This document shows positions 36,042 to 60,570 of a DNA stretch of 64,000 bases, piece after piece. Positions within the stretch are counted from its first letter, which is position 1, and each line of letters begins with the position of its first letter. The notes below the pieces were generated by a model that was given only the letters and a program-made list of their open reading frames with translations, did no database searches and was not told where the DNA came from. The stretch is taken from the NCBI GenBank assembly GCA_963701775.1, contig CAVPBH010000018.1, forward strand, positions 184,568 through 248,567, written 5' to 3'. The DNA is from an uncultured Chloroflexia bacterium. GTDB lineage: Bacteria; Chloroflexota; Anaerolineae; JAAYZQ01. Made by a program: the position numbers and the translations under genes.

Positions 36042-38413
36042 CTATGGGATGGTGACGGTGTCGCACGTCTCACCATTCTGGTCCGGGTCGTAGACCCAGC
36101 CGGAGAGCACCACATCCGTTATGCAGATTTTCCAGGTGCCGAGCTGGTTGAGAAGTACCTTGAAACTCGCGGCGCCCAGGGGGTTGGTCAGACTGACTTG
36201 CGCCTTCGGCCTGCCGCTGGGCGGGATCCACTCGGCCTGCACACTCGCTCCTGCCACCGGGCCGCCGCCGGCGTCCAGGACACGCACCAGGCCCCGGATC
36301 GCGAAGCGCCAGTGGCCCAGGTAGACGACCCTCAGCTTGATCCACTCCACGTGCATCGCTCCCAGCGGCGCTACCGTCACGGTCTGCTGCACAGACTCTT
36401 GCCCGCACGCGTTGCTTGCCGTCATGGTGACGGCATAGTCGCCGAAGGCGGCATAGGTGTGCGATGCCGGGTTGCCGGTGTCCGTCCCGCCGTCGCCAAA
36501 GTTCCAGGCGTAGTCGATGGGCTCACTGCCAGCGGCGGTGCCGGTGACGGTCACCACCTCGCCCATGGTCGGCGACGGGGAATCCACGTGAAGCCGGTGC
36601 CCGACACCGGCTCGAGCACCTTCAGCTGCACCGCCAGAGCCACCTGCGGCGTGTCGGGGTCGTTGCTGTTGACGAGCAGGCTGCCGGCGTAGGTGCCGGC
36701 GCCCAGCCCGGCCGAGTCAAAGGTAAGGATCACGTCCACACACTCGCCCGCGAGGAGCGTCGTGCCCGCCGGCTCCTCGGTCAGCCAGTCGAGTGCCTCC
36801 GACAGGCTCCAGACCAGGTCGGCCGTGCCGGCATTGCAGATCTGGACGGCAAGCTGCGCAGACCCGCCGGGGCAGAGCTCCGCTTCGAGCAGCGGCGCGG
36901 TCACCACGATGTTGGGGAAGGGAGGCGTCTCCACCTGGACGAGCTGGCCCAGGACCTCCACCTCGCCTTCCGCCAGCGGTGCCACGTCGTCTTCGCCCTG
37001 CCAGGCCACTAGGACCAAGTCACCGCCGGCCTGCGCGGCCAGGGCGGGCCGGCCGGCGCCGTAGGCGGGGTCGCCGTCGGGCCCGGCATCGCTGAGGCGC
37101 ACCGGGTCGCCGGCCAGGTCGCCCGTGCCTTCCAACATCTGGCAGAAGACCTCCATCTCGTCGTCGGCCAGCGGTCCGCTGCCCCAGTCGTGGTTGTCGT
37201 CGCCACGCCATGCCACCAGGTAGCGCCCGGGCGCGGCCAGGTAGGCCACAGCCGGTGCCCAGGCCCGGTAGGCCGGGTCGCCATCGGGGCCCATGCTGCT
37301 GATGCGGAAGCCGCTCACACCGACGGGGCTGCCGTCGGCTGCCAGGCGCTGTCCGTGGATCTCAATCTCACCCAGAGACAGGGCCGGCCCCCCTTCGTCG
37401 CCCGCCCAGATGACCAAGTACTCGCCGGTGTCATCGTTGTAGGCCACCGCCGGCCGGCGCGCCTGGTAGGCCGGGTCGCCGTCCGGCCCGGCGGCGCTGA
37501 TGCGAAAGCTCGGCAGCCCCACCAGGCTGCCGTCGGCGGCCAGGCGCTGGCCAAAGACCTCGTACTCGTCGTCGACCAGGGGTTCAGCGTCTGTGTCCCC
37601 CTCCCAGGCGACCAGGCATTCGCCGGCATCGCCGCACGCCAGCGCGGGCTCCTGGCCTCGGAACCCGGTATCGGCCGGGTCCGAGCCCATCTGGCTGATG
37701 GAGAAATCGTTCACGCCTACCTCGGCCGCGGCTGCATCCAGCCGCTGGCCAAAAATCTCGACGGCGTTATCCATCGAGTCGTCCCCCTGCCAGGCCACCA
37801 GGTACTCGCCCGAAACGGCGTTGTGGGCGACGGCAGGGTTGAGGGCATCGAAGGCCGGGTCGCCGTCGGGGCCCATGTCGCTGATGCGCACCGCCGATCC
37901 GAGCAGGCTACCGGCGGCGTCCAGCCGCTGGCCGTAGATCTCGAGCTCTCCGGCGGCCAGCCCGGCGGCTGCGCCGCCGGCCACCCAGACGACCAGGTAC
38001 TCGGCGGCAGCCGGGTTGTAGACCAGAGCCGGGTCGCGGGCGTAATAGGCAGGATCGCCATCCGGCCCGGTGGTGCTGATCCGGAAGCGCGCGCCCAGCA
38101 GCGTGCCGTCGCCGGAGACGCGCTGGCCGTAGATCTCGAACTCGTCATTGCCCAGCGGCGCCGCCTCGTCGTCGGCAGCCCATACCACCAGGAACTCGTC
38201 GCCGTCCGGGTTGTGCGCCACGGCCGGGTCGAGCGCGTAGAAGCGGGTATCGCCGTCGGGCCCCATCGCGCTGATGCGCAGGTCATTGGGGCCGATCTCT
38301 CCGGCGATCCCCGGCTGCGCCGCGGCCGGACCGGCCTGCCCGCCGGCCAACGCCAGCAGGACAAGGACCACCACCAGGACGCCGCAGGTCAGAGCTGTTC
38401 TTTGTCTTGCCAT
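36042..38413 (-). CDS. secreted protein: seven ~55-aa RIS-MGPDGDPA repeats, a W-SLSE/SNDPD beta-sandwich, a PKD domain and the shared C-terminal domain; frameshift at ~36586
   Basis: ATG at 38413 with a GGAGGAGG RBS. Signal peptide MARQRTALTCGVLVVVLVLLALA. The repeats read NDxRISxMGPDGDPAxxAxxPAVAxN..EYLVVW..DD......DExEIxGQRL. The PKD domain (EPIDYAWNFGDGGTD) and C-terminal domain (..GTWKICITDVVLSGWVYDPDQNGETCDTVTIP) are in the overlapping frame. Confidence 0.7.
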
Positions 38414-38488
38414 GGTTCCTCCTCCGGGCGGGGTGATCCCCGCCCCTGCGGCAGCCGGTCCGTCAAGGGCCGGCAAGCCGCAACCCGG

Positions 38489-40405
38489 CTACTTCTCTGC
38501 CTGTGCTGCGAGCAGCTCCGCCACCAGGGCCTCCAGCGCGTCCAGCCGCAGACGAAGGTCTTCGTTCTCAGCGCTCAGCCGCGCCGTCTCGGCCTGCTCG
38601 GCCTGGAGCTGACTATACAGCTCCTGGATGCCGGCCAGGGCCACGCCGTTGGCGTCCAGCGGCGCGATGTGCTTGTCGTCCGCCCCCAGACCAAAGGCGG
38701 CGTAAAAGTCCTGCGCCGTGGGCCCCATGTGGCGGGCGCTCTCCCCCTTGTAGCTCCAAGTAAAGACGGGGAGCGCGGCAATGCGCGACAGGACGGAGGC
38801 CTGGCTCACGGCGCAGAAGCTCTCCTTGCGGTTCACGTCGGAGGCTTCGGTGAGCGCGCCCTCGATCGTCAGGTTCCCGCCCAGGTCGAGGACCGCCTTG
38901 GTTGTGCCGTTTACCTTCAGCTCGAGAGGGGCGGTTCCATACGACCCGACCCCCGTCGTCGCCGTCAGGCCGCCGGCCAGGTTCATGTTGCCGGCCCCGT
39001 CCCACTGTGCCACTATCGTGGGGCCGATCCGGACATTGAGCCCAGTTTCATTATAGATCTCTGGCGTCTTGACGAAATCGGCCGTGACGCCAAAGGCCGA
39101 GAGCTCACCGTATGGCCCGAGGCTCAAGGTGCCGTTGTTGCCCAGTGTCGCCCGCGTGACACCGTTGACGACGAGCTCCAGCGGCGCATCGGTGGGCGAG
39201 CCAACCTGCGCTGCCGTGTCGGTCGCGGAGAGGAAGGCATACGCACCGTCGGTGCGATGGGCCACCACCTGAGGGTTCTCGCCGGTTCGCACCACCTCCA
39301 GGTCATACTCCGGGGACCAGGTGCCGATGCCGACGTTTCCCGTGTTCTTGAGTGTCAGGCTATTGGTGGGCGTGCCGGGCTGGATGCGGAAGGGCAGCAA
39401 GTCGCCCGCGGTCACGTCGCGCACGAAAAAGTTGGACTCGTTGCCGGAGACATCCCACACCTGGGGCGTCCAGCCACCTGATGCATCCTGGTCCAGGCGG
39501 ACGGTCGGCGTGTCCCCCCACACGCTGTGCAGGCTCTTGACAGGCGTCGATGTCCCCAGGCCAACCCGGCCCGAATCCGAGACAAAGAACGAGTTGGTCC
39601 GCGCGCCGGCCATGATCTTGAAGGGCTCCTTGCTGTTCGTCGAGTCCTGGATCTTCAGGTAGTTGGCGCCGCCCGAGCTGGAATCGTTGGCAATGATCCG
39701 CCAGTCGTTGAAGGGGAAGCCCGGCGTCGCGCTGGTATCGTCGAAGTAGATCTGGATGTTGTTCTCTTTCAGCTTGAGAGTATCAAAACCAAAGTTCTCC
39801 GATCCATCCGTAAGGCAGTCGAAACCGAGGCACTCGCTACCGGTGACGATCAGGTCGTCGGATACGACATAGTCCTCGATCTGGCCTCCACCGGTCGCTC
39901 CCGGCTCCTCGCCGCCGACGACGATCACTCCCGCCTCGATGCGAAAGTGGCCCGATGCCCGGAGGCCGCCGCCCGGGAGCTGCCCGGTTCGCTGCAGCTC
40001 GGCCACTACCTGTTCGCGCTCGGCGCTATCCGCGGCGGCATCCAATGCCGCCTGGGCCTCGGCCGACAGCCGGGGCCGGAAGGTCAGCTCGTAGCTGTAC
40101 GTGCCGTCGGTCACTGCCATGTCGTCCACATGGAAGACAGGGGACTCGCCGGCCGCGAACTCTTTCTGCCACACACTCCCGCCCGGCCCCTGCACGGTGA
40201 GCGCCGCGCCGGCCGCCTCCGCCAGCGGCTGCCAGGTGATCGACTCGGGTGTGACCGTCGCCGTAGCGACATTCTGACCACCATCCTGCGCAATGACACC
40301 TTGGGCAAGGGACGCTGCCCCCACCTGTACCTGGCCGGGGCCCGCTACCAGCGACAGCACCAGCACCACCAACAACGCACTGCCGAGAACAAGTCTTGCT
40401 TTCAT
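38489..40405 (-). CDS. secreted tail-fibre-like protein with C-terminal S74 intramolecular-chaperone domain
   Basis: Signal peptide MKARLVLGSALLVVLVLSLVA. The central part has Gly-rich beta-helix-like repeats. The C-terminus (SDVNRKESFCAVSQASVLSRIAALPVFTWSYKGESARHMGPTAQDFYAAFGL...IQELYSQL plus coiled coil) matches the S74 auto-cleaving chaperone module of phage tail fibres and endosialidases. Confidence 0.7.
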   Translation of the reverse strand: MKARLVLGSALLVVLVLSLVAGPGQVQVGAASLAQGVIAQDGGQNVATATVTPESITWQPLAEAAGAALTVQGPGGSVWQKEFAAGESPVFHVDDMAVTDGTYSYELTFRPRLSAEAQAALDAAADSAEREQVVAELQRTGQLPGGGLRASGHFRIEAGVIVVGGEEPGATGGGQIEDYVVSDDLIVTGSECLGFDCLTDGSENFGFDTLKLKENNIQIYFDDTSATPGFPFNDWRIIANDSSSGGANYLKIQDSTNSKEPFKIMAGARTNSFFVSDSGRVGLGTSTPVKSLHSVWGDTPTVRLDQDASGGWTPQVWDVSGNESNFFVRDVTAGDLLPFRIQPGTPTNSLTLKNTGNVGIGTWSPEYDLEVVRTGENPQVVAHRTDGAYAFLSATDTAAQVGSPTDAPLELVVNGVTRATLGNNGTLSLGPYGELSAFGVTADFVKTPEIYNETGLNVRIGPTIVAQWDGAGNMNLAGGLTATTGVGSYGTAPLELKVNGTTKAVLDLGGNLTIEGALTEASDVNRKESFCAVSQASVLSRIAALPVFTWSYKGESARHMGPTAQDFYAAFGLGADDKHIAPLDANGVALAGIQELYSQLQAEQAETARLSAENEDLRLRLDALEALVAELLAAQAEK

Positions 40406-40624
40406 CTGTCTTCTCCTTTTGTTGATTCCGGTCGTCTTCTGTCTTCGACTGACCTTCCAGGAAGCCGCGAGCTTCCTGGAAGGTGTCTGCCCTCATCGGG
40501 CGCCGCTCAGCGCCACGCCGGGGCGCCTCTGCTCCATCGGTACCGGGATAGACCCCTGCACTTTCTCGCCTGCAGCCCGGTCACACGCCCAGCTCGCGAG
40601 CGTCCAAAGCCGCGAGTCTGCCAC

Positions 40625-43402
40625 TCAGGGCACCGTCTTTGTGTCGCAGCTCTCATAGTTCTGAAGCGGATCATACCTGTACCCACTCTTGATGACGTTC
40701 GTCACGCACACGCGATATGTCCCGGTCTGCTTGGAGGAGACCAGGAACTTGGCCTTGCCGAGCAGGTTGGTGAGGACGACCTGCGACGTCGTCGTGCCAT
40801 TGGGGAGGGTCCAGGTAGCGTAGACAAGGGCACCCGAGACCGGCCTCCCGGCATTGTTCAAGATGGGGACCTCGCCGCTGACCTTCCAATAGGTGAACAG
40901 CCTCATCGCGCCCATCAGGATGTTGCCGACGTGCAGTGACGGCACAGCGGACGTCACCTGGATGGTCACGGTAGCGGTGTCGCACATGCCGAACGTGTCG
41001 CAAACACGGTACGTGAAACTGTCCGTGCCCGTCCAGGGAGAGGTCGGGGAGTAGGTGAAGGTGCCGTTGCCGTTGTTTACCACCGTGCCGTGGGCCGGCA
41101 CCGTGACCACCGCCGCCGTCGTGGGGTCCAGGTTGCCGTCGGGATCGACGTCGTTGGCGGTAGCATTGATCAGGACGGCTTTGCCCGTAGCGGTGGTGGC
41201 CGAATCGTCGCGGGCGTCCGGCGCCCAGTTGGCCCGCACCGTCACGGTGTTTTGCACCAGCTCCCCTCCACAGACGTTCCAGGCACTCATCGACACCAGG
41301 TGGTCGCCGGGGGCGTCATAGACGTGCACGACCGGGTTGTCGCCCTGGATAAGGCCGTCCGGCAAGGATTCCTCCGAGTCGAACGCCCAGGTGAAGACGA
41401 TTGGCGCGGAGCCTTGCGCAGAGCCCGTGAAAGTCGTCGGCTGGCCCACACTCGGCATTGCCGGATCCCAGGTGAAGGCCAGGTCGTGAAGCGGCTCGAG
41501 CACTTCCAGGTCAGCCGGAACGGTCACCTGCGACTCGTCGGGGTCGTTGCTGGAGACCTGGATGCCAGCGGAGTACTGCCCTGGCGCCAAGCCTGCCGAG
41601 TCGAAGGTCACGGTCACGTCGCGGCACTCGCCGGGTGGTATGCTCCCGCCGAGCGGCTCCTCGCGCAGCCACGAGACCGAGTCAGCGGCGACCTGACCGT
41701 CGATCCGAAAAGCCAGGTCATGCGGCCAATCGGGGCTCCCCGCCTGGACTCGCCACGAGACCCATCCCTCGTGCCCCCCACCCCAGTGGTCCATGGGGTC
41801 GATGAACTGGGCCTCCTGTCCGTTCTCCGTCGTGCCAAAGTACCAGTAGAAGGCGTCTTCCTCGAAGCTGGCGAACTCGGGGAAGAAGAGGAGCCACCAA
41901 GAGCCCGAAGGCACAGCCAGTGACCCGCCCAGGGCGGCCACGAGGTCGAGCGTGACGTCGCCGTTGTACTGCCCGCCGATGGTAACCGCCGGATCGTCGG
42001 GGGAAGTGCTCCAGCACCAGAACTCGCCGCCGATGAGTGGGTGGCCCGCCGGCACCCCGCCGGCGTCCGGGTATATGCACCAGTGAAGCGCGGAAGCGTG
42101 GCTCATGCTGCCCCACCACATGGCGCCGGGGACGAAGATCGACTCGATGCTCCACGGCTCCAAGTTCACAAAGTCGTCGGCGGAAAAATCACTCCAGCCG
42201 TCGACGGTATACATATCGGAGTGTCCGGTGTTCTGGGCGAGGGTTGATTGGTCCCAAAGGATCCCTTCCGGCCGTCCCTTCCTTTCGCCTGCCATCTCGG
42301 ACAGGATCCAGGTGAGAGCCCCGTCCCCGGTGTTGCAGACCTGGAGTGTCTGAGTGGTGGTCGTATCGGGGCACAGTGTGGCGCTGAGGGACACCGGGCT
42401 CACGTCGATGTCGGGCTCGGTCACGGTGATTGCTTGTGTCACGCTTTGCTGGCCGCAGCCATTGTCGATCGTGAGCGTCACCTGGTATGTGCCCTTAGCC
42501 GCATAGGTGTGTGTTGCCACAGAGCCGATGCCCGTATCGCCGTCGCCAAAACCCCATTCGTACTGGATCGGCTCGCTGCCCTCGCCGGTACCCCGGAAGG
42601 TGACCTGCTGGCCCACGTTCGGGCCGGCCGGCAGCCAGGTAAAGCCGGCACCATGCGCGGGATCGAGCGCGGTCAGGCTGACGGGAACCAGCAGGCGCGG
42701 CGTCTCGAAATCGTTGCCCTGCACCAGCAGGCCACCCGCGTAAGAGCCGGGTGCCAGACCTGCCGTGGTGAAGGTGACCGCCACGCTCGTTTCGTCTCCG
42801 GGAATGACCGTCCCCCCAGTCGGGTCCTCGCTCAGCCAGGGAATATCGGCCTGGGGGCCGGCATAGGCCTCCACGCGCAAGGCCTTGCCTCCCGATCCCG
42901 TATTCCAGCTATCCCCGTACCAGATGGCGGATGGCGAGTTCTCGTCTGTCGCAGCTTGGGCCCAGAACCATTGGCCATAGGGCTGGATTGCCATGTCCAT
43001 ATAGAAGATGAGCCACCAGTGGCCGGCGGGCACGGCAGCGCACTGCCGGTGGCTAGCAGCAGGTCGAGCGTAACGTCGCGCCCCGCAGTCGATCGTCACT
43101 CCCGGGGCACCGGGCGACAGGCTCAGGTTCCAGACGTCGAGCCCATCGCCCGGCACTCCGCCCGGCTGCCCGCCGGCATCGGCGTAGAGGTACCAGCGAA
43201 ACGCACTGGCGTTGGCCGGGTCGGACGAATACTCACCGCCGCCGACGATGATGCGGGAAATCTCCCACGGCTCGGCGTTGACCAGGTCCTCTGCCGAGAA
43301 GGTGCAATAGCCATAGTCGGTGAAGCACTGCGAGGCAGACGAATAGGGACCTTCCTCGAGCTGCTCCGCCAGCGCCGGCTCGGGCGGCCGCTCGGACAGC
43401 AT
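40625..43402 (-). CDS. giant secreted adhesin-like protein, fragment 4 of 4 (C-terminal)
   Basis: Contains two SQCF...GHWWL-FY...QWFW domains, two W-SLSE/SNDPD modules, PKD domains and a cadherin-like domain (ANDVDPDGN). It ends in the shared C-terminal domain (TGTYRVCVTNVIKSGYRYDPLQNYESCDTKTVP). The upstream frame is joined at a G-run near 43395. Confidence 0.6.
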   Translation of the reverse strand: MLSERPPEPALAEQLEEGPYSSASQCFTDYGYCTFSAEDLVNAEPWEISRIIVGGGEYSSDPANASAFRWYLYADAGGQPGGVPGDGLDVWNLSLSPGAPGVTIDCGARRYARPAASHRQCAAVPAGHWWLIFYMDMAIQPYGQWFWAQAATDENSPSAIWYGDSWNTGSGGKALRVEAYAGPQADIPWLSEDPTGGTVIPGDETSVAVTFTTAGLAPGSYAGGLLVQGNDFETPRLLVPVSLTALDPAHGAGFTWLPAGPNVGQQVTFRGTGEGSEPIQYEWGFGDGDTGIGSVATHTYAAKGTYQVTLTIDNGCGQQSVTQAITVTEPDIDVSPVSLSATLCPDTTTTQTLQVCNTGDGALTWILSEMAGERKGRPEGILWDQSTLAQNTGHSDMYTVDGWSDFSADDFVNLEPWSIESIFVPGAMWWGSMSHASALHWCIYPDAGGVPAGHPLIGGEFWCWSTSPDDPAVTIGGQYNGDVTLDLVAALGGSLAVPSGSWWLLFFPEFASFEEDAFYWYFGTTENGQEAQFIDPMDHWGGGHEGWVSWRVQAGSPDWPHDLAFRIDGQVAADSVSWLREEPLGGSIPPGECRDVTVTFDSAGLAPGQYSAGIQVSSNDPDESQVTVPADLEVLEPLHDLAFTWDPAMPSVGQPTTFTGSAQGSAPIVFTWAFDSEESLPDGLIQGDNPVVHVYDAPGDHLVSMSAWNVCGGELVQNTVTVRANWAPDARDDSATTATGKAVLINATANDVDPDGNLDPTTAAVVTVPAHGTVVNNGNGTFTYSPTSPWTGTDSFTYRVCDTFGMCDTATVTIQVTSAVPSLHVGNILMGAMRLFTYWKVSGEVPILNNAGRPVSGALVYATWTLPNGTTTSQVVLTNLLGKAKFLVSSKQTGTYRVCVTNVIKSGYRYDPLQNYESCDTKTVP

Positions 43403-44009
43403 CCAGATCAGGTCTGACGCCCCCGCTGTTGCCGATGGTGAGCGACTGGGTCTCTTCCGTATCGGGGCAGAGAGCCGCCTCCAGAGATGTGGGTGAGACG
43501 GTCATGTCGGCAGGGCCGAGCACCGTCACGGTGTGCTGCACGAGCGCCGCCGGGGCGCAGCCGTTGCTCACCGTCAGCGTCACCAGGTAGCTGCCGAATG
43601 TGTCATAGGCGTGGGTAGCCACTGCCCCACCGCCCCCGTACCCGTCGCCATAGTCCCAGTCGTAAATCAGGGGCTCGCTGCCCTGCGCCGTGGCGCTGAA
43701 GTGGACCTGTTCCCCTGACAGAGGCCAAGTCGGACTCCAGGTGAAGGCGGCGTCGGTCGGCGGATCGAGCACCGCCAGGCTCACCGGGACGTCCAGAACC
43801 GGCTCATCGGGGTCGTTGCTGGCGAAGGTGATTGCGCCGTCGAAGGGATCGGAGCCTGGGTCAAAGAAGCCGACGTCGAGCGAAGCGCACTCCCCGGGTG
43901 CCAGCGTGCCGGCTGCGGGGAAGATGGTCAGCCAGTCCAGGCTTTCGCTGGCGGACCATTCCAGGTCCGGCCTCGCCGGCGTTGCAGACCTGGAGGGCTT
44001 GGGTCTCAC
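43233..44009 (-). CDS. giant secreted adhesin-like protein, fragment 3 of 4
   Basis: W-SASE/SNDPD module plus a PKD domain ([10 protein letters not shown]). The coherent sequence carries on into the 40625-43402 frame. Confidence 0.55.
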
Positions 44010-44910
44010 TGCCGCCGGGGCAGAGCGTGGAAGAGAGGGACGGTGGTGTCACGGCGATGTCGGGTTCCAGGTCGCAGACGTCGCCCACGCCGTCGCCGTC
44101 AGAATCCGCCTGGTCGGGGTTTGCTACGCTCGGGCAATTGTCGCAGAGATCGCCCACACCGTCTTCGTCGCTATCCGCCTGGTCGGGGTTGTAGGTGGAG
44201 GGGCAGTTGTCGCAGGCGTCGCCCACGCCGTCCAGGTCCGCGTCCGCCTGGTCGGGGTTGTAGGTGTTGGGACAGTTGTCGCAGGCATCGCCTGCGCCGT
44301 CGCCGTCGGCGTCCGCCTGGTCGGGATTGTAGGTGCTGGGACAGTTGTCGACGGCGTCTGGCACCCCATCGCCGTCAGAGTCCGGCTGGACAGTCACTTG
44401 GTGCTGCACCACTTGCTGGCCGCACGCATTGCTCACCGTCAGCGTCACGGTGTAGCTGCCGGCGCTGGCGTAGGTGTGCCCGACCTGCGAGCCAGAGCCG
44501 GTCCCACCGTCGCCAAAGGTCCAGGAGTATGTGAAGGGCGGGCTCCCCTGCGCCGTCGCGTTGAAGGTCGCGGGTTGGCCTGCCACCGGCGCTGCCGGGC
44601 TCCAGGTGAAGGCAGGTTCGCTGGGCGGCGCGCAGCCCGAGACGACGACCACCTGGCGAGTGACCACCTGCTGCCCGCAGGAGTTGCTCACCGTCAAAGT
44701 CGCCGTGTAGGTGTCGGGCGTGGAGTAGGTGTGGACGACCTGCAAGCCGCTACCGGTCCCGCCGTCGCCAAAGGCCCACGAGTAGGTCAGCGGCGTGTTG
44801 CCCTGCGCTGTCGCATTGAAAGTTACCGGCTCGCCCGCCACCGGCTGAGCCGGACTCCAGGTAAAGTCGCCGGCACTCGGCGGCGCGAGCACCGTGAGCC
44901 CGGCCGGCAC
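43861..44910 (-). CDS. giant secreted adhesin-like protein, fragment 2 of 4
   Basis: Two PKD domains followed by four thrombospondin type-3-like Ca-binding repeats ([19 protein letters not shown]). Confidence 0.55.
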
Positions 44911-45838: not shown

Positions 45839-45936
45839 TCTTCTCTCCTGTGGGTTCAGCTTTGGGCGTTTCCTGCGCGCCGTTTCGCACGCTTGCCATT
45901 ATGCTCACCTCAGGTCTACGGGCACCTCATCATTCA

Positions 45937-46170
45937 TCATGCAGCGCTCTCACGGGGTTCCGGAAGATCTCCCCCGCCGGCGAAGGCCTCCTCTTCCAGG
46001 AACTGTAGCAGCCCTGCCAGGCCGGCAAAGCACCGCTCATCGCCGCTCTGGACGCTGTGCACAAGGACGCGCCAAGGCGCACCCGGAGACTCGCGCCACA
46101 GGCGCAGCAGATAGCTGCGGTAGCGTTCTGGATCGGCGATGGGAACGGCGATTCGCTCGGTCTCACCCAT
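45937..46170 (-). CDS. small hypothetical protein (77 aa)
   Basis: MGETERIAVPIADPERYRSYLLRLWRESPGAPWRVLVHSVQSGDERCFAGLAGLLQFLEEEA... with a GGAAGAGA RBS. It is divergent from the regulator gene. The evidence is weak. Confidence 0.35.
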   Translation of the reverse strand: MGETERIAVPIADPERYRSYLLRLWRESPGAPWRVLVHSVQSGDERCFAGLAGLLQFLEEEAFAGGGDLPEPRESAA

Positions 46171-50090: not shown

Positions 50091-50137
50091 GCAGAAGCCG
50101 GCGCACAGAAGGTGCGTCGCATCTGATTCCGGCCCTG

Positions 50138-50899: not shown

Positions 50900-50929
50900 G
50901 GCTTGCTCCCCAGTCGAGCCCGCATCCTC

Positions 50930-52150
50930 CTATCGCTCACCCACGCCCAGCGACCGCTCCAGCCGCCGGCTGGCATACGACATGGAGAAAGTAAAGACCC
51001 AGAAGACCACCGCGATAAAGACATAGACTTCCTTGTCCAGCAGAAGCCACTGGACGTTGCTGTTGAGCACCGCCTTGCCCACCGCCAACAACTCGACCAG
51101 CCCGACGATGATCGCCAGCGTGGTGTCCATGAAGAGAGCGATGAACTGGCCGACGATGGCCGGGATGACGGCCCGCAGCGCCTGCGGCAGGACGATCAGC
51201 AGCATGGTGTGAAAGCCGCTCAGCCCGACCGCCTTGGCGGCCTCGATCTGCCCCTTGGGGATCGACTGTAGGCCTCCGCGCACATTCTCCGCCATGTAGG
51301 CGGCGGCGAAGAAGGTCATGGCCAGCATCGCGCGCAGCACGCGGTCGATCCGCACATTCTCCGGCAGGAATAGCGGCAGGATCAGCGAGAACATGAAGAG
51401 GATCGTGACGAGCGGCACGCCGCGCACGAGCTCGATGAACAGCGTGCAGAACACCTTCACCACCGGCAGCGAACTCTGGCGACCCAGCGCGAGAAGGACC
51501 CCGATCGGAAAGGAGGCGACGATTCCGACCAGCGCCAGCAGGAAGGTGAGCAGCAGCCCGCCCCACAGCCCCGTCTCCACCGCCGGCAGCAGCCGGCTGC
51601 CGGGAAGCCCGCGCAGCAGCAACAGCGTCAGGGCAAAGGAGGCCAGCCACAGGATCAAGAGCAGCCGGCTGCCCACCCATCCCCTGCTGCCCAACAGGCG
51701 GCCCAGGACGACCAGCACCGGGCAGGCGAACAGCCCCAGCCGCAGCGCCAGGTCCAGCCGGTCTGCGTTGGGCGGGTGCAGGTCGATCGGAAGCAAAGCG
51801 AGCAGCCCCAAGCCCAGTGCCAGCGCGATGGCAAAGGTCCGCACCGTGCCGCCCCACCGGCCCCAACTGATCCCCATCAGGAGGCAGACGATGCCCAGTA
51901 TCAGCCCGACCCGCCACGCCTGCTCCACTGGGTACTGGCCGAGCGCAAAGAGCTTCAGGCTCTGGAGCACCGGGGCCCAGTTCGCCCGCGAGACCCACAG
52001 GACAACGCCGCGGCCCACCCCGACGATGAAGGCCAGCGCCAGGAGGGTGAGAAGCGCGTTGGGAAGGTTCGGCGCCAGGGTCCTACGCAGCCGCCGCAGC
52101 CGCGATACGACCGGGGGCAGCCGGGAAAGAGCCGGGGAGCCGGGCGCCAT
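50930..52150 (-). CDS. amino acid ABC transporter permease
   Basis: The ATG at 52150 has a GGTGGAG RBS and overlaps the stop of the upstream permease. HisM/AapM-like permease. The ORF-track start at 53404 is an out-of-context extension. Confidence 0.85.
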   Translation of the reverse strand: MAPGSPALSRLPPVVSRLRRLRRTLAPNLPNALLTLLALAFIVGVGRGVVLWVSRANWAPVLQSLKLFALGQYPVEQAWRVGLILGIVCLLMGISWGRWGGTVRTFAIALALGLGLLALLPIDLHPPNADRLDLALRLGLFACPVLVVLGRLLGSRGWVGSRLLLILWLASFALTLLLLRGLPGSRLLPAVETGLWGGLLLTFLLALVGIVASFPIGVLLALGRQSSLPVVKVFCTLFIELVRGVPLVTILFMFSLILPLFLPENVRIDRVLRAMLAMTFFAAAYMAENVRGGLQSIPKGQIEAAKAVGLSGFHTMLLIVLPQALRAVIPAIVGQFIALFMDTTLAIIVGLVELLAVGKAVLNSNVQWLLLDKEVYVFIAVVFWVFTFSMSYASRRLERSLGVGER

Positions 52151-52152
52151 CG

Positions 52153-53349
52153 TCACCGCTCCACCAGGCGCACGCGCCGGTTGTAGAGGTTCATCACCAG
52201 CGACGTGATCAGGCTCATGGCCAGGTAGCACGACATCATCAGCACAAAAACGGGCACTGCCCGGCCTGCCTGGTTGATCGTCGTCTTGCCGACGAAAAAG
52301 AGGTCGGGATAGCCGATCAGCAGCGCCAGGCTCGAGTTCTTGGTCAGGTTCAGGTACTGGCTGATCAGCGGCGGGATGATGACCCGCAGCGCCTGGGGAA
52401 AGATCACCAGACGCAGGACCTGGAGCGGCTTCAGCCCCAGAGCCTTGGCCGCCTCCGCCTGGCCCCTCTGGACGGCCAAGATGCCGGCGCGCACCACCTC
52501 GGCGATAAAGGCCCCGGTGTAGATCACCAGGCCGGCGAGCAGGGCGGTGAACTCGGGAGTAAGCGCCAGCCCCCCGGTAAAGTTGAACTTGCCGAGCACC
52601 GGCACCGTCTTGCTGAGCGGGCTCTCGCCCACGATCAGCCACCCGGCCACCGGCAGCAGGATGAGGACGGCAGCGGCCACGGTCACGGGGTAGGTCGCCC
52701 GGCCGGTTCGGAGCTGGTAGCGCAACAGCACGGCGTGGAGCGTGCCTGATAGGACCACGCCGGCCCCCACAAAGATCATCCAGCCCCAGAAGGTGGCCGT
52801 GGGCGTCGCCCACACGGTGTAGAGCCCGCGCTGGCTGAGGTAGATCGGCCCCGGCAGCTCCAGGCTTTCCTGCACCGAGGGGAGCTGCTGGAAGACCGCA
52901 AAGTACCAGAAAAAGAGCTGGACGGCGAGGGGAATGTTGCGGATCGTCTCGATGTAGCCACCGGCGATCTTGGTCACCAGCCAGTTCGACGAAACGCGCG
53001 CCAGGGCGGCCAAGATTCCCAGGAGCGTCGCCAGGACGATGCCCACCGACGCCACCTGCAGGGTGTGCAGCAGCCCGATCAGGAAGGCAAGTCCGAAGGG
53101 CTTGGAGGGATCGTAGGGCAGGATCGACTCTGGCAGCGGGAAGCCGGCTGCCTGCTTGATGAAGCCAAACCCCAGTCCCAGGCCGCGCTCGTTCGCCGCC
53201 CGCAGGATGTTGCTTCCCAGGAGGAGGGCCACGCCGACGACCAGCACGGCGGACACGATCTGCGCCGCCCATTGCAGCACGACCGCGTCCCGCCAGAAGG
53301 GCACCCCCCGCCGGTAGAGAAGCCTGCGGAGCCGGCCTTGGCTCACCAC
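52153..53349 (-). CDS. amino acid ABC transporter permease
   Basis: 398-aa AapQ-like permease with the EAA loop IAEVVRAGILAVQRGQAEAAKALGL. Confidence 0.85.
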   Translation of the reverse strand: MVSQGRLRRLLYRRGVPFWRDAVVLQWAAQIVSAVLVVGVALLLGSNILRAANERGLGLGFGFIKQAAGFPLPESILPYDPSKPFGLAFLIGLLHTLQVASVGIVLATLLGILAALARVSSNWLVTKIAGGYIETIRNIPLAVQLFFWYFAVFQQLPSVQESLELPGPIYLSQRGLYTVWATPTATFWGWMIFVGAGVVLSGTLHAVLLRYQLRTGRATYPVTVAAAVLILLPVAGWLIVGESPLSKTVPVLGKFNFTGGLALTPEFTALLAGLVIYTGAFIAEVVRAGILAVQRGQAEAAKALGLKPLQVLRLVIFPQALRVIIPPLISQYLNLTKNSSLALLIGYPDLFFVGKTTINQAGRAVPVFVLMMSCYLAMSLITSLVMNLYNRRVRLVER

Positions 53350-53433
53350 CTCTCTGCTCTCCTCGAGTGTAGACGAGAAGCAGAGGCCTGGCAGGCGCTG
53401 CCACCCGCCAGGCTCTGCCCCAACGCGCCGTCC

Positions 53434-54546
53434 CTAGCGCAGCGGCGGCGCGTACATCAAGCCCCCATCCTTCCAGAGCTTGTTCAGCCCCCGATCCAGT
53501 GTGAAGGAGAGGCCCTCCGGTCCCATGTAGCGATCATAGATCTCGCCATAGTTGCCCATGGCCTTGATCACGTTGGCGGCAAAGTCGACCGACAGACCCA
53601 GGTCCTCCTGGCCAAAGGTGCCCTCGACGCCGAGCAGCCGCCTGATCTCGATCGACTCGCTGGCCTTCATCTCGTCGACGTTCTGCGAGGTGACGCCCAG
53701 CTCTTCGGCATTCACGAGCACCCAGGCGGTGAGCTTGACCACATCGAACCACTTGTCGTCGCCGTGCGGCACGGCAGGCGTCAGCGGCTCCTTCGACATG
53801 GTCACGTCCATGATGACGTGATCGTCCGGGTTGGCAAAGCCGCTGCGGACGGCTGCAAGCTGCGACTTGTCGCTGGTGGCGGCGTCACAGCGACCATCCT
53901 CGTAGGCGCTGTATACCGCCGACGTGTCCTCGAATGTGACGGCCGTGAACTCCAGGCCCAACTGGCGGAAGGCATCGGCCAGGTTCTTCTCGGTGGTGGT
54001 GCCGGTCGTCACACAGACGGTCGCGCCGGCCAGGTCCTCCAGCGTGGTAAAGCCGGTGTCCTTGCGCACCATCATCCCCTGGCCGTCATAGTAGGTAACC
54101 ATAGTGAAGTTACCCCACTGGATGTCACGGGTCGAGGTCCACGTCATGTTGCGGGCGACAATATCCACCTCGGCGTTCTGCAAGGCCGGCCCACGGTCGG
54201 CGGCCTGGATAGCAACAAACTCCACGGCCTCGGGGTTGTTGAAAACGGCCACGGCCACCGCCCGGCAGAAGTCGATGTCAAAGCCCAGGTTCTTGCCGTT
54301 GGCGTCCAGGTAGCCAAAGCCGGGCAGGCTGGTGTGGACGCCGCACACCACCTTACCCCGCGCACGGACGGCGTCCAGGATGCCGCCCGTAGCGGGAAGT
54401 GTCCCCGCCGCCGGACACTCTGGGCAATCCGGGCACTGGGCACAGGGGGTGGGTACGGGGCATTCGGTCTCGGCTCCGCAGGCGCTCAGCAGCAGCGCGC
54501 CCACGGTCAACAGGGTCAACAGCACGAATAAGGATCTGCGGTTCAC
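53434..54546 (-). CDS. amino acid ABC transporter substrate-binding lipoprotein
   Basis: GTG at 54546 with an AAGGAGGGAG RBS. Signal peptide with LLLSAC lipobox, a Cys-rich linker (CPVPTPCAQCPDCPECP), then a type-2 periplasmic binding-protein domain. Confidence 0.8.
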   Translation of the reverse strand: MNRRSLFVLLTLLTVGALLLSACGAETECPVPTPCAQCPDCPECPAAGTLPATGGILDAVRARGKVVCGVHTSLPGFGYLDANGKNLGFDIDFCRAVAVAVFNNPEAVEFVAIQAADRGPALQNAEVDIVARNMTWTSTRDIQWGNFTMVTYYDGQGMMVRKDTGFTTLEDLAGATVCVTTGTTTEKNLADAFRQLGLEFTAVTFEDTSAVYSAYEDGRCDAATSDKSQLAAVRSGFANPDDHVIMDVTMSKEPLTPAVPHGDDKWFDVVKLTAWVLVNAEELGVTSQNVDEMKASESIEIRRLLGVEGTFGQEDLGLSVDFAANVIKAMGNYGEIYDRYMGPEGLSFTLDRGLNKLWKDGGLMYAPPLR

Positions 54547-54847
54547 GGTTTCTCCCTCCTTGTTCCTGATCAGACGGCTGCGAAACGAACGGGGTAGTCC
54601 CTGGCAGCAGATCGTACGCCGGCGCATGCCTCCTTTCTGCAGGAATCCAGGATCCGGCGGCAGGGCCGGCCATGCCTGACCTGCGCGTCCAGTGTACCAC
54701 AGGATCGTGTTTCGCGCAACTGGACGCATCGGAGCTTTGGGGGTCCTCGGGTGCCCGTCATGTTGAGGGTGACAGGTACCTCAGTCTGGGGCACTCTTTC
54801 CGGCACCGGCGACTTGCGGTACAATCCCGCGGAAAGGACTCACACTA

Positions 54848-56563
54848 ATGCACAGCATCAACTCCGCCTTCTTCGTCCTCGCCCTGCTCCTGGGCGCCGC
54901 GTCTGCCGCATCCGGCCCGGTCCAAGCGCCTCCCCTGCCGCCGGCGCCCGACTGGACGGCCGAGGGACAGCAGGACTGGGCCCACTTTGGCCTGGCTGCC
55001 GGTAGAGCCGGCGACGTGAACGCCGACGGCTACGGTGACCTAATCGCAGGGGCGCACCTGTACGACGGCGGGCAGACGGACGAGGGCGCCGCCTTCCTCT
55101 ACCTGGGCTCGCCGGCCGGCCTGGGCGCCCAGCCCGCCTGGAGTGCCGAGGGTGACCAGGCGTATGCCTACTTCGGCCGGGCGGTGAGCGACGCCGGCGA
55201 TGTGGACGGGGATGGCTACGACGACGTCCTGGTGGGTGCGTATGGCTACGAGCGAGCGGCGAGCGAGGAGGGGCGCATCTATCTCTACCGGGGGACGGAC
55301 GGAGGCCTAACGCCTCAGCCCACCTGGAGCGCCGATGGGGGCCAGGCCTACGCCAACCTCGGCTGGTCGGTTTCGGGTGCCGGAGACCTTAACGGCGACG
55401 GCTACGACGACCTGGCGGCAGGCGCGCCCTTCTACGACAACGGTCAGGCCGACGAGGGGATAGCGTGGGTTTTCTACGGTTCACCCTCGGGGCCCTCCCC
55501 GGCGCACGGCTGGCAGGGCGAGAGCGACCAGGAGGGCGCTTTCTTTGGATTTTCGCTCGCCGGCGCCGGCGATGTGAACGGAGACGGCTACGACGACCTG
55601 CTCGTCGGCGCCTACGGCTACGACAACCCGCTGGAGCGCGAGGGGCGTGTCTACCTCTTCTACGGCTCGGCCGGCGGCCTCTCCCCGGCCGCCGGCTGGA
55701 CGGCCGAGTCAGGCCAGGCAGGCTCCTGCTACGGCCTGGCCGTGGCTGCCGCCGGCGACCTCAACGCCGACGGCTACGACGACCTGGCCGTGGGCGCCTA
55801 TCTCTACGACGGCACCCTCCAGGACGAGGGCGCGGTGCTTGTCTACCTGGGCTCGGCCTCCGGCCCCTCGGCAGAGCCAGATTGGATTGCCTACGGCGGC
55901 CAGGCATCGGCCTTCCTGGGATTTGCCCTCGGCGCCGCCGGCGATTTGGACGGGGACGGCTTTGGCGACCTGGCCGCCGGCGCGCACGCCTACGACGACG
56001 GGCAGATGGACGAGGGCCGGGCGCTGGTTTGGCTCGGATCGGCCGCCGGGCTGCGGTCAGAGCCTGACTGGGCGGCAGCCAGCGACCAGGAAGGAGCGCA
56101 TTTTGGCCGGCCGGTGCGCTCCGCCGGCGACGTGAACGGCGACGGCCGGGCCGACCTGGTCGCCGGAGCATCGAGCTGGGACGGTGGACAGGTGGACGAG
56201 GGGGCGGTGTTCGTCTACTACGGCGTGCCCGGCGAAACACTGCACCTGTCGCTCCTGAAGCTGGGCTGGAAGCCCGGACCAAAGCCCGGGACCTACGTCC
56301 TCAGCGCAGCAGCAGCGGTCCACGACGGGGACCACGCGCCGGCACCTGGCGTGCGCGTGGCGGGCACGTGGACGGCGCCCGACGGCGCGATCACGGCTCA
56401 AACCGCGCTGACCGACGCCCGGGGCCAGGTCAGGTTCCTCCTGAAGGCACGGCTGGCCGGAGCCTACCAGTTCTGCGTCACAGGCATGGCGAAGGAGGGC
56501 TACGCCGACAATCCGGCGAACGACCACAGCCCCCGCTGCAGGACGGTACAGGTGGGGGAATAG
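54848..56563 (+). CDS. secreted FG-GAP (integrin-alpha-like) repeat protein with the shared C-terminal domain
   Basis: Signal peptide MHSINSAFFVLALLLGAASAASG. About 9 FG-GAP repeats (GDVNADGYGDLIAGA..., GDVDGDGYDDVLVGA...). The C-terminus is RGQVRFLLKARLAGAYQFCVTGMAKEGYADNPANDHSPRCRTVQVGE. Confidence 0.75.
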   Translation: MHSINSAFFVLALLLGAASAASGPVQAPPLPPAPDWTAEGQQDWAHFGLAAGRAGDVNADGYGDLIAGAHLYDGGQTDEGAAFLYLGSPAGLGAQPAWSAEGDQAYAYFGRAVSDAGDVDGDGYDDVLVGAYGYERAASEEGRIYLYRGTDGGLTPQPTWSADGGQAYANLGWSVSGAGDLNGDGYDDLAAGAPFYDNGQADEGIAWVFYGSPSGPSPAHGWQGESDQEGAFFGFSLAGAGDVNGDGYDDLLVGAYGYDNPLEREGRVYLFYGSAGGLSPAAGWTAESGQAGSCYGLAVAAAGDLNADGYDDLAVGAYLYDGTLQDEGAVLVYLGSASGPSAEPDWIAYGGQASAFLGFALGAAGDLDGDGFGDLAAGAHAYDDGQMDEGRALVWLGSAAGLRSEPDWAAASDQEGAHFGRPVRSAGDVNGDGRADLVAGASSWDGGQVDEGAVFVYYGVPGETLHLSLLKLGWKPGPKPGTYVLSAAAAVHDGDHAPAPGVRVAGTWTAPDGAITAQTALTDARGQVRFLLKARLAGAYQFCVTGMAKEGYADNPANDHSPRCRTVQVGE

Positions 56564-56608: not shown

Positions 56609-57258
56609 CTACGGCACGGTGATCGCGGCGCAGTCGCTCGGGTTCAGGCTGGGATCGTAGGTGAACCCGGCCTTGGTCACGTCGGTCACGCACAGGATGT
56701 ACGTTCCGGACTCCCAGTAGTTCAGCTTGAAAGCGGCAAAGCCCTGCGGGTCCTTGGTGACCCTCACGTCAGTGTAGATCGAGCCACCAGGTGTCGTCCA
56801 CTCGACATACACGGAAGCACCAGGAACCCGTGGTCCGCTCATCTCGCGGATTTGGACCTAACCGCGGACGGATACGGTGGGGATCGGGGTGTCTGGGGCA
56901 CCTTCGATTGGGAGAGCGACGTAGGACATCTTGAACTGGCTCGCGTAGATGAGGTTCTTGCTGCCCGACAGGCGGAAGGCCCAGTCGTGCTGGGACACTC
57001 CCCAGGTGGATCCTGACTGGATCGAGGTCCAGACGCCGGGGAACCCGAATCCGCCGCCAGGGTTGATCACCTGGCCGACGTAGCCGTTGGCCGTAGTCGA
57101 CAACTGCCGCCCGTACTGGCCGTAGCAAGGCTAAAATCCAGCTGCGGGTAGAACACGAGCCACCAGGTGCCCGGCGGCACTCGATCTTGCGCGGCGGTCA
57201 TGGCCACCGAAGACAGGGCCACGAGGAGGATAAGCAAAGAAACAGCCACTTTTCGCAT
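56609..57258 (-). CDS. small secreted protein with a half SQCF-type domain and the shared C-terminal domain; two frameshifts
   Basis: The ATG at 57258 has an AAAGGAG RBS. Signal peptide MRKVAVSLLILLVALSSVAMTAA. The product reads coherently across three frames (..PPGTWWLVFYPQLDFS.. / ..ANGYVGQVINPGGGFGFPGVW.. / ..GTYILCVTDVTKAGFTYDPSLNPSDCAAITVP*). Confidence 0.5.
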
Positions 57259-57464: not shown

Positions 57465-57593
57465 GGTTCCAGGGGTTGGGCAGGATCGCCCCGCCCGGAG
57501 GCCCCGTAGAAAGGAGGTGCCATAGCCGTCGAGTCTTCGCACGTCGCGTTCCCTGTTCGGAACACCCCGCAGACAAGAGAAAGGAGTATTGCC

Positions 57594-60570
57594 ATGCGAG
57601 TCCCGAAAGCGTTCTATCTGCTCTTCTGCCTGGCCCTTGTTTCGGGCGTGATGCCCCTGGCAGCAACCGCCCAGACGGCGGCGCCGATTGAGCAAGAGCT
57701 CTTGACCCGGCTGGCTGCCGAAGGCACCGCCAACTTTTTTGTCAAGATGGCCGTCGAGGCCGACCTGAGCGCCGCGTACGGCATGGACTGGGATGCCCGC
57801 GGCGCGTATGTATGGAAGGCGCTGAACGAAGTGGCCCAGGCCACCCAAGCGCCGGTCCTCGACTACTGCCGGAGGCACGGCCTGACCTGCCGGTCCTTCC
57901 TCACCACCAATGCCGTCCTGGTGCGCGCCGGGACGGCCGACCAAGCCCAGGACCTGGCCCGCCTGCCGGGCGTGGCCTACCTCCGGCTCGAGCGCATCCT
58001 CCAGATCCCCGACCCGGTGGCCGGCGCCCCCGGCGTCAACGGTTTTGTCTCGAGCAGTGCAGCCCCAACGGCCACCACCGACTGGGGCATCACAGACACC
58101 AAGGCCGACCAGGTGTGGGCTCTGGGAGTGCGCGGCCAGGGCATCAAGGTGGCCAACATCGACACCGGCGTGCAGTACAACCATCCCGCCCTCTTCCCCA
58201 ACTATGGCTGCCAGGCCACGCCGACCGATCCCTCCTGCTGGTATGACCCCAGCAACACCTGCGGCGGCAGCGTGTGCGACAACAGCGGCCACGGCACCCA
58301 TACGATGGGGACGATGGCCGCCAAGGACGATGCCGGCCTGACCTACATCGCCGGGATGGCACCGGATGCCACCTGGATCGCCTGCAAGGGCTGCGAGTCC
58401 AGCTCGTGCTCGGAAGGCTCGCTTAACGCCTGCGCCGACTGGACCCTGGCTCCTGGCGGCAACACGGCCAACCGGCCGGCGGTCGTCAACAACTCCTGGG
58501 GCGGCGGCAGCGGCGACACCTGGTACCTGGCCAAGGTCCAGGCCTGGCGTGCGGCCGGCGTCTTCCCCGCCTTTTCCGCGGGCAACAGCGGCCCGAGTTG
58601 CAGCACCTCCAACAGCCCCGGCGACTACCAGGAGAGCTTTGCCAGTGCGGCGCACGACAGCAGCCGCACCATCGCCAGCTTCTCCAGCCGCGGGCCAAGC
58701 ACCTTTGGCCACGACCCCTATACCAAGCCGAACATCAGCGCCCCCGGCGTGAGCATCTGCTCGACCGTGCCGACCAACTCCTGGAGCTGCGGCTACTCCG
58801 GCACGTCGATGGCCAGCCCGCACACCGCCGGCGCCGTCGCGCTGCTATGGCAGGCCTGCCCCGACCTGGTAGGCCAGATGGACCTGACTTTCACGACGCT
58901 CCAGAACTACTCCAACACACCCCCTGCCGGCAACTGCCTCGCCCCGCCCGACGGGCAGGGCAACTACACCTACGGCTACGGCTACCTGGACACCCTCGCC
59001 GCCGTCCAGTCGTGCATGGGCGGCCTCGAGTTCGGAAGCCTCCAGGGCTACGTCTATGACCAGGACGCCGCCCCGATCGAAGGCGCCACCGTCAGCGCGG
59101 TGCCCACCATCCAGGGCGGCCAGATCCAGGCTACGACCGATCCGACCGGCTTTTACACGATGCAGCTCGTGCCCGGCACCTACACGGCCACCGCCTCCAA
59201 GAGCGGCTACACCACGCAGTCGGTGCCCGGCATCGCCATCGTCGCCGACACCGTCAGCAGCCAGGACTTTGGCCTCACTTACCTCGGCGCCTGGACCAGC
59301 TACGGCACGCTGTGCTTCGACTGGACTCGCTTCGACGGTGAGTACTACGACGGCAAGGTTTACTTCCTGGGCGGCCGCTCCGGCACCAGCACCGACGGCA
59401 CGATCTACCGCTTTGACCCGGTGACCGGCGCCTGCGCCGCAACCGGTGCCACTATGCCCGTGCCCATCTCCAACTACACCATTGCCCTGCTGAACGACGG
59501 CACGGCCGACCTGCTGTGCACCTTCGGCGGGCGCGACAGCGCCGGCGCCCAAACGCTGGCGGTGCAGTGCTACAACCCCGTGGCCAACACTGCAACCAAC
59601 AAGGGCAACCTGCCCGCGGCGTTCACCGGCTTTGCGCCAGGCGGCGTGGAAGCAGCCAACAACAAGGCCTACATCTTTGGCGGCTTCCGCAACACCAGCG
59701 CGCCCTATCACATGACGGCCACCTACGAGTATGACCCCGTCGCCAATACCTTCACCGCCAAGGGCAACCTGGCGCTGGGCCGCGGCTACATCATCACCGC
59801 CGTGGTCGACGGCAAGGTGTACGCCTTCGGCGGGGACGTGTTTGACGGCACCAACCTCAACGCCCAGACGATCGCCGAGGTCTTTGACCCCGCGGCCGGA
59901 ACCTGGAACGACGCGGCCGTGGCCGACCTGCCGGCGGCCTCCGGCGAGGGCCGCGGCTTCGGCTTCGACACAGGCTCCGGCTACGTCTATGAGAAGCGGG
60001 TGATCCTGGCCGGCGGTGGCCTGTGGCCCAGCAACAGCCTGGAGGTCACCTCCTACGACGTGGCCACCAACAGCTACGACACGTCGTTCCCCGATCTCGA
60101 ATGCCGCGCGCCGCGACCACGCCAGCTTCTTCGTGCCGGGGAATCCCGGGCGCATGTGGGTGGTGGGCGGCTGGTACGGAGCCGACACCCCACCCTACGC
60201 CCCGGCGGAGTACTATGATGTGCCCGTGTTGGCGCCTCTGCTCAAGCTCCACCTTTTCCGCCTGCGCACGAGCTGGCAGGCCGGCCCCAACCCCGGCACC
60301 TACAAGGTCCTGGCCAACGGGACCGTCCATGACCAGGCCCACGCCGTGATCGCCGGCGTGACCGTGCATGGGGATTGGACCTACCCGAACGGCCGGGTGG
60401 TGCACCGCACCGGGATGACCAACGCGGTGGGGCGGTTCAAGCTGTCGATCCCCTCGAAGCAGGCCGGCACCTACCAGTTCTGCGTGACCGACATGGTCCG
60501 GGCCGGGTATGCCTACGATCCCGGCTCGAACCATGTGCCCGCCTGCCAGACACTGGCGGTTGGGCCGTAA
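57594..60570 (+). CDS. secreted subtilisin-like S8 serine protease with CarboxypepD_reg-like, Kelch beta-propeller and shared C-terminal domains; frameshift at ~60100
   Basis: Signal peptide with I9-like propeptide. Catalytic triad motifs [17 protein letters not shown] and GTSMASPH. Kelch-type repeats ([23 protein letters not shown]). After ...TSFPDL the protein continues in the +1 frame ([14 protein letters not shown]...[34 protein letters not shown]). Confidence 0.8.

Follow-up and report, generated by a model that had tools for sequence, protein, structure and literature searches.

A block of secreted-protein genes in an uncultured Chloroflexia bacterium as a possible toolkit for cell-surface display

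What do the large secreted proteins encoded side by side in an uncultured Chloroflexia bacterium have in common, and what might their common parts do? We examined a 64-kb stretch of this genome (contig CAVPBH010000018.1, positions 184,568 to 248,567; hereafter the window; G+C ~67%), in which the region from 36.0 to 60.6 kb holds six genes with signal-peptide-like N-termini (A, F, B, E, C and D; signal peptides were assigned by eye from translations of open reading frames, ORFs). Five of these genes, with 'business ends' as different as a seven-repeat unit, a multi-domain adhesin, an FG-GAP propeller and an S8 protease with Kelch, carry one and the same C-terminal domain, which we call module 1. 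Two further modules recur among them: module 2, a putative binding head, and module 3, an immunoglobulin (Ig)-like domain that can be split by an inserted module 2. We read the region as a toolkit for displaying proteins at the cell surface, with a probability of about 0.5.

Six secreted genes and their shared modules

The block consists of the following genes.

36042-38413, minus strand: gene A, ~791 residues with its frameshift bridged (ORFs and their junction, Pfam, module profile)
38489-40405, minus strand: gene F, 638 residues, intact (Pfam PF13884)
40625-45838, minus strand: gene B, the 'giant adhesin', ~1738 residues with three frameshifts bridged (ORFs, Pfam, BLASTP, module profiles)
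54848-56563, plus strand: gene E, 571 residues, intact (Pfam, module profile)
56609-57258, minus strand: gene C, a remnant with module 2 and module 1 (module profiles, junction analysis)
57594-60570, plus strand: gene D, ~991 residues with its frameshift bridged (Pfam, module profile)

Gene A runs from a signal peptide through seven ~65-residue repeats to module 3, a PKD domain and module 1. Gene B begins with a signal peptide, module 2, module 3, two PKD domains, TSP3 repeats, a further module 3 and a third PKD; there follow a module 3 split by module 2, a PKD and a second module 3 split in the same way, and the protein closes with PKD, a Big_9/cadherin-like domain and module 1. Gene E joins its signal peptide to seven FG-GAP repeats (E = 5.5e-53, 7 stretches) and module 1 (56225-56560), and gene D joins its own to an S8 subtilase, CarboxypepD_reg, a Kelch propeller and module 1 (60232-60567). 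Gene F combines a signal peptide and a fibre-like region with a C-terminal Peptidase_S74 intramolecular chaperone domain (PF13884, E = 1.1e-7); hmmsearch of the six-frame translation found none of modules 1-3 in it.

An original prediction from the sequence had described seven secreted genes drawing on three unassigned domain families. We count six, the sixth (F) sharing no module, and four of the six are interrupted by frame changes over which that reading had passed silently. Its list of known domains proved right: PKD, TSP3, cadherin-like/Big_9, FG-GAP, Kelch and S8 were all found by Pfam, along with CarboxypepD_reg. The sharing itself is also real, with all-against-all BLASTP of the ORF pieces giving E values of 1e-8 to 1e-43; not all three modules are unassigned.

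Two observations concern genes A and F. The seven RIS-MGPDGDPA repeats that had been reported are visible in gene A (36920-38320, minus strand), in the form F-R-I-S-x-M-G-P-D-G-D-P-A...P-A-V-A-Y-N...E-Y-L-V-V-W...E-I-F-G-Q-R-L. They match nothing in Pfam, NCBIfam or PDB sequences and are a fourth element without family assignment, and their number suggests a 7-bladed propeller. Gene F, which lies between A and B, has a coiled-coil tail after its Peptidase_S74 domain that recalls phage tail fibres and spikes.

By hmmsearch of the six-frame translation, the window holds exactly five copies of module 1 (domain E 2.5e-31 to 2.6e-41), each at the C-terminus, in genes A, B, C, D and E as had been predicted.

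36045-36371, minus strand: module 1 of gene A (hidden Markov model (HMM) E = 4.5e-41; copy used for the structure model)
40628-40951, minus strand: module 1 of gene B (HMM E = 5.2e-39)
56225-56560, plus strand: module 1 of gene E (HMM E = 4.3e-35)
56612-56842, minus strand: module 1, C-terminal part, of gene C (HMM)
60232-60567, plus strand: module 1 of gene D (HMM)

These copies are linked by pairwise BLASTP (1e-7 to 1e-29) and share 24-44% identity. The alignment gives a length of ~105 residues rather than the ~75 first proposed. An AlphaFold model of the gene A copy (pLDDT 97.2, pTM 0.87) folds as an Ig-like sandwich of seven to eight strands and can be superposed on invasin, intimin and macroglobulin (MG) domains. 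Against Pfam Big_1 (PF02369), the window copies scored 13.5-25 bits, below the gathering cut-off of 34.9, and 14 of 18 family members matched at E ≤ 0.1 (best E 6.6e-6). Sequence and model together point to a divergent Big_1/macroglobulin-type Ig domain. A PPC-like identity, the earlier suggestion, was rejected: PPC and collagen-binding domains are absent from the top structural matches, and both sequence and fold lead to Big_1/MG. In all 35 instances that we collected, module 1 ends 0-14 residues before the protein C-terminus. It has a cysteine pair of which both members are present in 29 of the 35 copies and both replaced in 2, and this joint presence or replacement fits a disulphide.

Module 2 was found, in agreement with the prediction, in three full copies in gene B (HMM E 1e-57 to 1e-69) and as a C-terminal half (profile positions 101-187) in gene C. 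HMM searches of the six-frame translation detected no further copies of modules 1 and 2 elsewhere in the 64 kb.

45194-45694, minus strand: copy 2a, N-terminal, right after the gene B signal peptide; copy used for the structure model
42848-43366, minus strand: copy 2b, between a module 3 N-part (~43420-43517) and C-part (~42668-42850) (sequence reading, HMMs)
41675-42253, minus strand: copy 2c, between a module 3 N-part (~42287-42418) and C-part (~41498-41686) (Pfam, HMMs)

With 45 (19 + 26) diverse members as queries, neither Pfam-A (2025 copy) nor NCBIfam r20 gave a match, although thresholds were relaxed to E ≤ 1-10; nor did any PDB sequence match the family. With the threshold at E ≤ 1e-3, an exhaustive profile search recovered 3,695 representatives, each standing for a cluster at 50% identity; 1,697 of them passed E ≤ 1e-10, and 294 passed E ≤ 1e-30. 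Word-indexed homologue searches returned only 23, 15 and 59 matches and badly understated family size, which the exhaustive search corrected for module 2. All named relatives are labelled 'hypothetical protein'; they come from Anaerolineae, Chloroflexia, Gaiellales, Holophagae and Acidobacteriota metagenome-assembled genomes. The conserved motifs are ADDF, W-x-I-Y-x-D-x-G-G-x-P, G-x-(Y/W)-W-L and D-x-A-F-R-L-E-G. Foldseek returned TM-scores of 0.44-0.56 for the modelled copy, in line with a jelly roll. On its modelled fold, module 2 is a ~190-residue jelly roll belonging to a large unannotated family, and its place is either N-terminal or within a module 3.

Module 3 had been expected in at least four copies. 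We saw five by BLASTP and HMM, one in gene A and four in gene B, of which two are those split by copies 2b and 2c; the remaining three are listed below.

36623-36919, minus strand: module 3 of gene A; HYDIN Ig 23.8 bits (cut-off 25.5)
44924-45184, minus strand: module 3 of gene B, uninterrupted copy, running on across the frameshift at ~44913; BACON_2 39.8 bits, HYDIN Ig 27.4 bits
43755-44034, minus strand: module 3 of gene B, cut by the frameshift at ~43968

The gene A copy is 42% identical over 140 residues (BLASTP) to the copy at 44924-45184 with its flank. In gene B, module 3 passes the Pfam cut-offs of two families, PF19190 BACON_2 (39.8 bits against 25) and PF22544 HYDIN_VesB_CFA65-like_Ig (33.2 and 27.4 bits for two pieces, against 25.5). 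It falls below the 45-bit cut-off of NCBIfam NF012200, choice-of-anchor D (25.3 and 20.5 bits), to which it is related without being a member. Its profile matches mark module 3 as an Ig-like domain of the HYDIN/VesB/BACON kind. Modules 1 and 3 thus both fall among known Ig-like families, module 1 as a distant relative below the Big_1 cut-off, and the earlier description as unassigned holds for module 2 alone.

What is new about module 3 is its use as a host for an insert. Copies 2b and 2c each sit between its first ~40 residues, ending L-x-W-x-L-S-E, and its last ~60, which start W-L..P..G and end S-N-D-P-D; at copy 2c, the HYDIN Ig match spans only profile positions 52-97, directly after the insert. 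Among the 169 module 2 copies in the 145 best proteins, 58 are directly followed by module 3 positions ~40-99, and 23 of those 58 are also preceded by positions 1-40. The same split occurs in three Chloroflexota metagenome-assembled loci (L003, L004, L005). More broadly, module 2 was found with Ig, PKD, DUF11, GEVED, Peptidase_C1 and Kelch domains as well as nested in module 3, which bears out the proposed domain shuffling.

In two other loci (L012, ORF 4882-12000, residues 1261-1603 and 1608-1915; L008, ORF 1-9495), the same split site holds inserts of 200-245 residues unrelated to module 2, one of which looks alpha/beta and one MAM or choice-of-anchor-J-like. To judge from these sequences, the split Ig seems able to take up inserted head domains of various kinds, as a host of general use.

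C-termini, regulation and a display model

How could such modules work together? One indication comes from the C-termini of module 2 relatives, many of which are proteins of only ~250 residues made of a signal peptide, module 2 and a sorting signal. Pfam recorded IPTL-CTERM (PF18203), PEP-CTERM (PF07589) and the type IX secretion system (T9SS) tail (PF18962) at their C-termini. A tail of the form Y-L-P-(L/I)-(I/V)-x-(K/R), 0-4 residues from the end, closes ~60 of the 145 top module 2 proteins (P0039-P0183; ~40%, against a regular-expression background of 2.3%). This tail corresponds to NCBIfam NF050076, 'YLP-box putative sorting motif' (seen in one protein, at 13.6 bits, just under the cut-off of 15), and is carried by none of the genes in the window. 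Module 1 closes 14 of the same 145 proteins (~10%). That the terminal slot of module 2 relatives holds known sorting signals is our main argument, an indirect one, for reading module 1 as a localisation domain and not a spacer; by this analogy, its strictly C-terminal position and the shared slot are consistent with a sorting or anchoring role.

A second indication comes from the genes next to the adhesin.

45937-46170, minus strand: small ORF, 77 residues, upstream of gene B, between the regulator and B
46470-50090, plus strand: SARP/AfsR-type regulator (Pfam: weak Trans_reg_C, then BTAD, AAA_16 and TPR)

The regulator is transcribed divergently from gene B. An ENA scaffold (L015) encodes an intact 1554-residue adhesin (P0125), in which module 2 is nested in module 3 and module 1 comes last, together with a divergent regulator that is 67% identical over 1,219 residues to that of the window and, between the two, a 73-residue ORF that is 76% identical to the small ORF. 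This shared arrangement indicates that regulator, small ORF and adhesin are a conserved unit. The product of the small ORF reads MGETERIAV...YLLRLWRESPGAPWRV...

From these folds, family sizes, architectures and synteny, we infer a ligand, a localisation and a mode of regulation as follows. Module 2 would act as a ligand-binding head, most likely for a glycan or another surface polymer, a role that we propose from its fold likeness to Cwp84's lectin-like domain, to phage receptor-binding leg and tail-spike domains and to modules of the CBM32 type (CBM, carbohydrate-binding module). Such heads may often be displayed as inserts in module 3, with the insertion point predicted to lie in the loop between the 'L-W-x-L-S-E' and 'W-L..P..G' strands, and module 3, PKD and Big_9 would serve as spacers. 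Module 1 would be the shared C-terminal localisation domain that retains the proteins on the envelope. The BTAD-AAA-TPR regulator and the small ORF may control at least the adhesin, gene B.

Reading frames and a strain-variable segment

Are these genes whole? Seven frameshifts were found in all, six in genes A, B, C and D and one in an old-yellow-enzyme (OYE) gene outside the block, as well as one in-frame stop.

~36584, minus strand: frame change of gene A, inside PKD
~44913, ~43968 and ~43419, minus strand: frame changes of gene B
~57100, minus strand: frame change of gene C, with an in-frame TAG at 56858-56860 inside module 1
~60102, plus strand: frame change of gene D

The deposited proteins of the source contig are split at the same places (P0024, P0025, P0031, P0076). 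In gene C, the signal peptide joins directly to module 2 profile position ~101; the intact architecture of signal peptide, module 2 and module 1 exists elsewhere (P0001, P0098). Gene C is a pseudogene, a true remnant whether or not the other frameshifts are real, because it has lost half of module 2 and carries a nonsense codon. The functionality of A, B and D depends on whether their frameshifts are real.

Part of the block also differs between strains. In two JGI (Joint Genome Institute) metagenome contigs from different samples (L013 and L014), which are ~96% identical to the window across an ABC transporter, position 50133 is fused to 33727. This junction shows that 16.4 kb present here are missing in close relatives, and the part with A, F, B and the regulator is accessory DNA. 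The two contigs (3 kb) do not extend to any frameshift site.

33728-50132: 16.4-kb segment absent from L013 and L014, containing a DDE transposase, a partial OYE duplicate, genes A, F and B, the small ORF and the regulator
33892-35025: DDE transposase, in the start region of the segment
31435-32734: OYE (Oxidored_FMN) gene, frameshifted near 32100
35025-35888: partial OYE duplicate (3' part), beyond the transposase, 96-98% identical to 31753-32652, in one open frame
50138-54729, minus strand: four-gene amino-acid ABC transporter, unrelated to the block, between the regulator and gene E

Short hairpin-like sequences (GGTGCG..GCACC) stand near both ends of 33728-50132. Just past the first OYE copy, the stretch 32740-32850 encodes ...ARELLAGVYAWLTEGLDVLDLVQARAML..., closely like the C-terminal end of the regulator (49990-50090), and looks like something that a past rearrangement left behind.

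Two further proteins are encoded upstream of the block, one of the DUF4062-NACHT/AAA-TPR (STAND-type) kind with 1080 residues (16416-19658, minus strand) and one with nine LVIVD repeats (28482-30716, minus strand); we saw no link between either and the block. Two ORFs pair domains oddly, a PBP-like solute-binding domain with a partial molybdopterin-oxidoreductase domain (4764-6446, minus strand) and an FAD-binding domain with a radical SAM domain (21329-23461, plus strand); natural fusion or another frame error could account for either.

Alternative readings and known systems

Several points weigh against surface display by a shared anchor and binding head. The usual role of Big_1 and MG domains is that of a stalk or spacer and not of an anchor, and no enzyme or receptor that might partner module 1 turned up among the neighbours checked in L015, L017 and L018, of which only the L015 contig is long enough. 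The fold likeness of module 2 is moderate (TM ≤ 0.56, identity 9-14%, one Foldseek match at E ≤ 1e-3), and the jelly roll is a fold that other domains, such as PHR and APC10/Doc1, use for recognition between proteins. The authors who described the Cwp84 domain could not show sugar binding (PMC4089489). Part of the toolkit may not be expressed, given the frameshifts and the nonsense codon.

Module 1 might accordingly be a mere Ig-like cap or stalk without a sorting role, on proteins that are simply secreted and whose common C-terminus stems from recent duplication or recombination of neighbours. Its fold, that of the spacer units of invasin/intimin Big_1 and macroglobulin, would suit this, as would the lack of any transmembrane segment or short sorting motif after it in the 35 collected instances and of a conserved partner gene in the three loci just named. 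We nevertheless hold it unlikely: unlike tandem Big_1 stalks, module 1 is single-copy and strictly terminal (35/35), it occurs on five unrelated architectures in one genome, copies only 24-44% identical are not recent duplicates, and relatives carry known sorting signals where module 1 sits. It is likewise doubtful that module 2 is no lectin and serves instead as a protein-protein interaction or architectural jelly roll, for instance in self-association of surface proteins or recognition of protein substrates. The double use of the fold speaks for it, but where the ligand of a fold neighbour is known, that neighbour is in most cases a carbohydrate-binding module or the receptor-binding part of a phage, and the many ~250-residue proteins look like displayed binding units. 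As for the original prediction taken whole, three uncharacterised families with a PPC-like module 1 diversifying by shuffling, we consider it improbable. Module 2 (no Pfam, NCBIfam or PDB sequence match) and the highly varied architectures agree with it; against it, module 3 is assigned to known families, which refutes this part, and module 1 is by sequence and fold a distant Big_1/MG relative with PPC and collagen-binding domains missing from its best structural matches.

The frame changes raise a different alternative, that the block is largely decaying accessory DNA. The frameshifts would then be genuine, and A, B, C and D would be pseudogenes, located within a mobile, strain-variable segment or beside it, with no current function. 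The count of seven frameshifts (six in the block, one in OYE) and one in-frame stop would fit decay, as would the truncated module 2 of gene C, the split deposited proteins and a segment that is missing from related strains and opens with a transposase and a partial gene duplicate. The OYE gene, however, is an unrelated gene of housekeeping type, and its frameshift near 32100 would favour assembly indels. Each frameshift lies inside a domain, and conserved motifs run on intact in the new frame across every one, so that each gene formed a single frame until not long ago, or does so even now if the indels come from sequencing. Genes E and F are intact, as is the homologue of B elsewhere (P0125), and the split deposited proteins place the frameshifts in the deposited sequence without making them biological. 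We judge a largely decaying block unlikely to be the right account.

A bolder form of the display reading would make module 1 an unrecognised folded C-terminal anchor or export domain of a Chloroflexota-type envelope (compare the T9SS C-terminal domain, SLH and CWB2) and module 2 a new lectin family inserted in a split Ig, the two jointly forming a new surface-display system under a dedicated regulator. This we regard as highly improbable. Adhesins of several domains, put together by shuffling beta-sandwich modules, are familiar, and what we have here is ordinary adhesin biology plus one domain family, module 2, worth naming: useful cataloguing and no surprise. With ~3,700 clusters in Chloroflexota, Acidobacteriota and other mostly uncultured phyla, module 2 is named in no curated library. 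Defining it, the split-Ig scaffold and module 1 would improve the annotation of surface proteins in poorly known groups and would provide definite starting points for studying how proteins are fixed to the envelope in these bacteria.

Among known systems, Cwp84 of Clostridioides difficile offers the closest comparison for module 2. In one member (P0062), module 2 comes after a papain-like protease, an arrangement shared with Cwp84. Cwp84's lectin-like domain (PDB 4CI7, residues 335-497) is 11% identical to module 2, with a TM-score of ~0.47-0.49, and the motifs of module 2 are its own. Sequence homology between the two was sought in PDB sequences with the family profile and through P0062, and none was found. 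The Cwp84 domain is described as calcium-binding and putatively carbohydrate-binding, with function unproven (PMC4089489); the tripod 'leg' domain of phage phi812, which is similar to it and a fold relative of module 2, was likened to it and proposed as a receptor-binding site (PMC13433997). By sequence, module 2 does not belong to CBM32/F5_F8_type_C, the galactose-binding-domain-like CBMs.

Module 1 can be set beside two groups of known domains. Compared with Big_1 (PF02369) of invasin and intimin and the MG domains of complement C5 and bacterial alpha-2-macroglobulin, it is single-copy and always the last domain, and it has a conserved cysteine pair and the ending G-(Y/W)-x-Y-D-P..N..E-T-C-D-T-x-T-x-P. 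In other module 2 proteins, the YLP-box, PEP-CTERM, IPTL-CTERM and the T9SS C-terminal domain occupy the same C-terminal slot. Module 1 does not match these elements in sequence, and it has no transmembrane segment and no cognate sorting machinery that we could identify; it would be their putative functional equivalent. In being a folded beta-sandwich, and in size, it resembles the T9SS tail. Module 3, finally, matches the PF22544 and PF19190 profiles over ~85 residues, with two to three copies above cut-off. It departs from the norm of both families in that, here and in many relatives, it is split after ~40 residues by a whole inserted domain.

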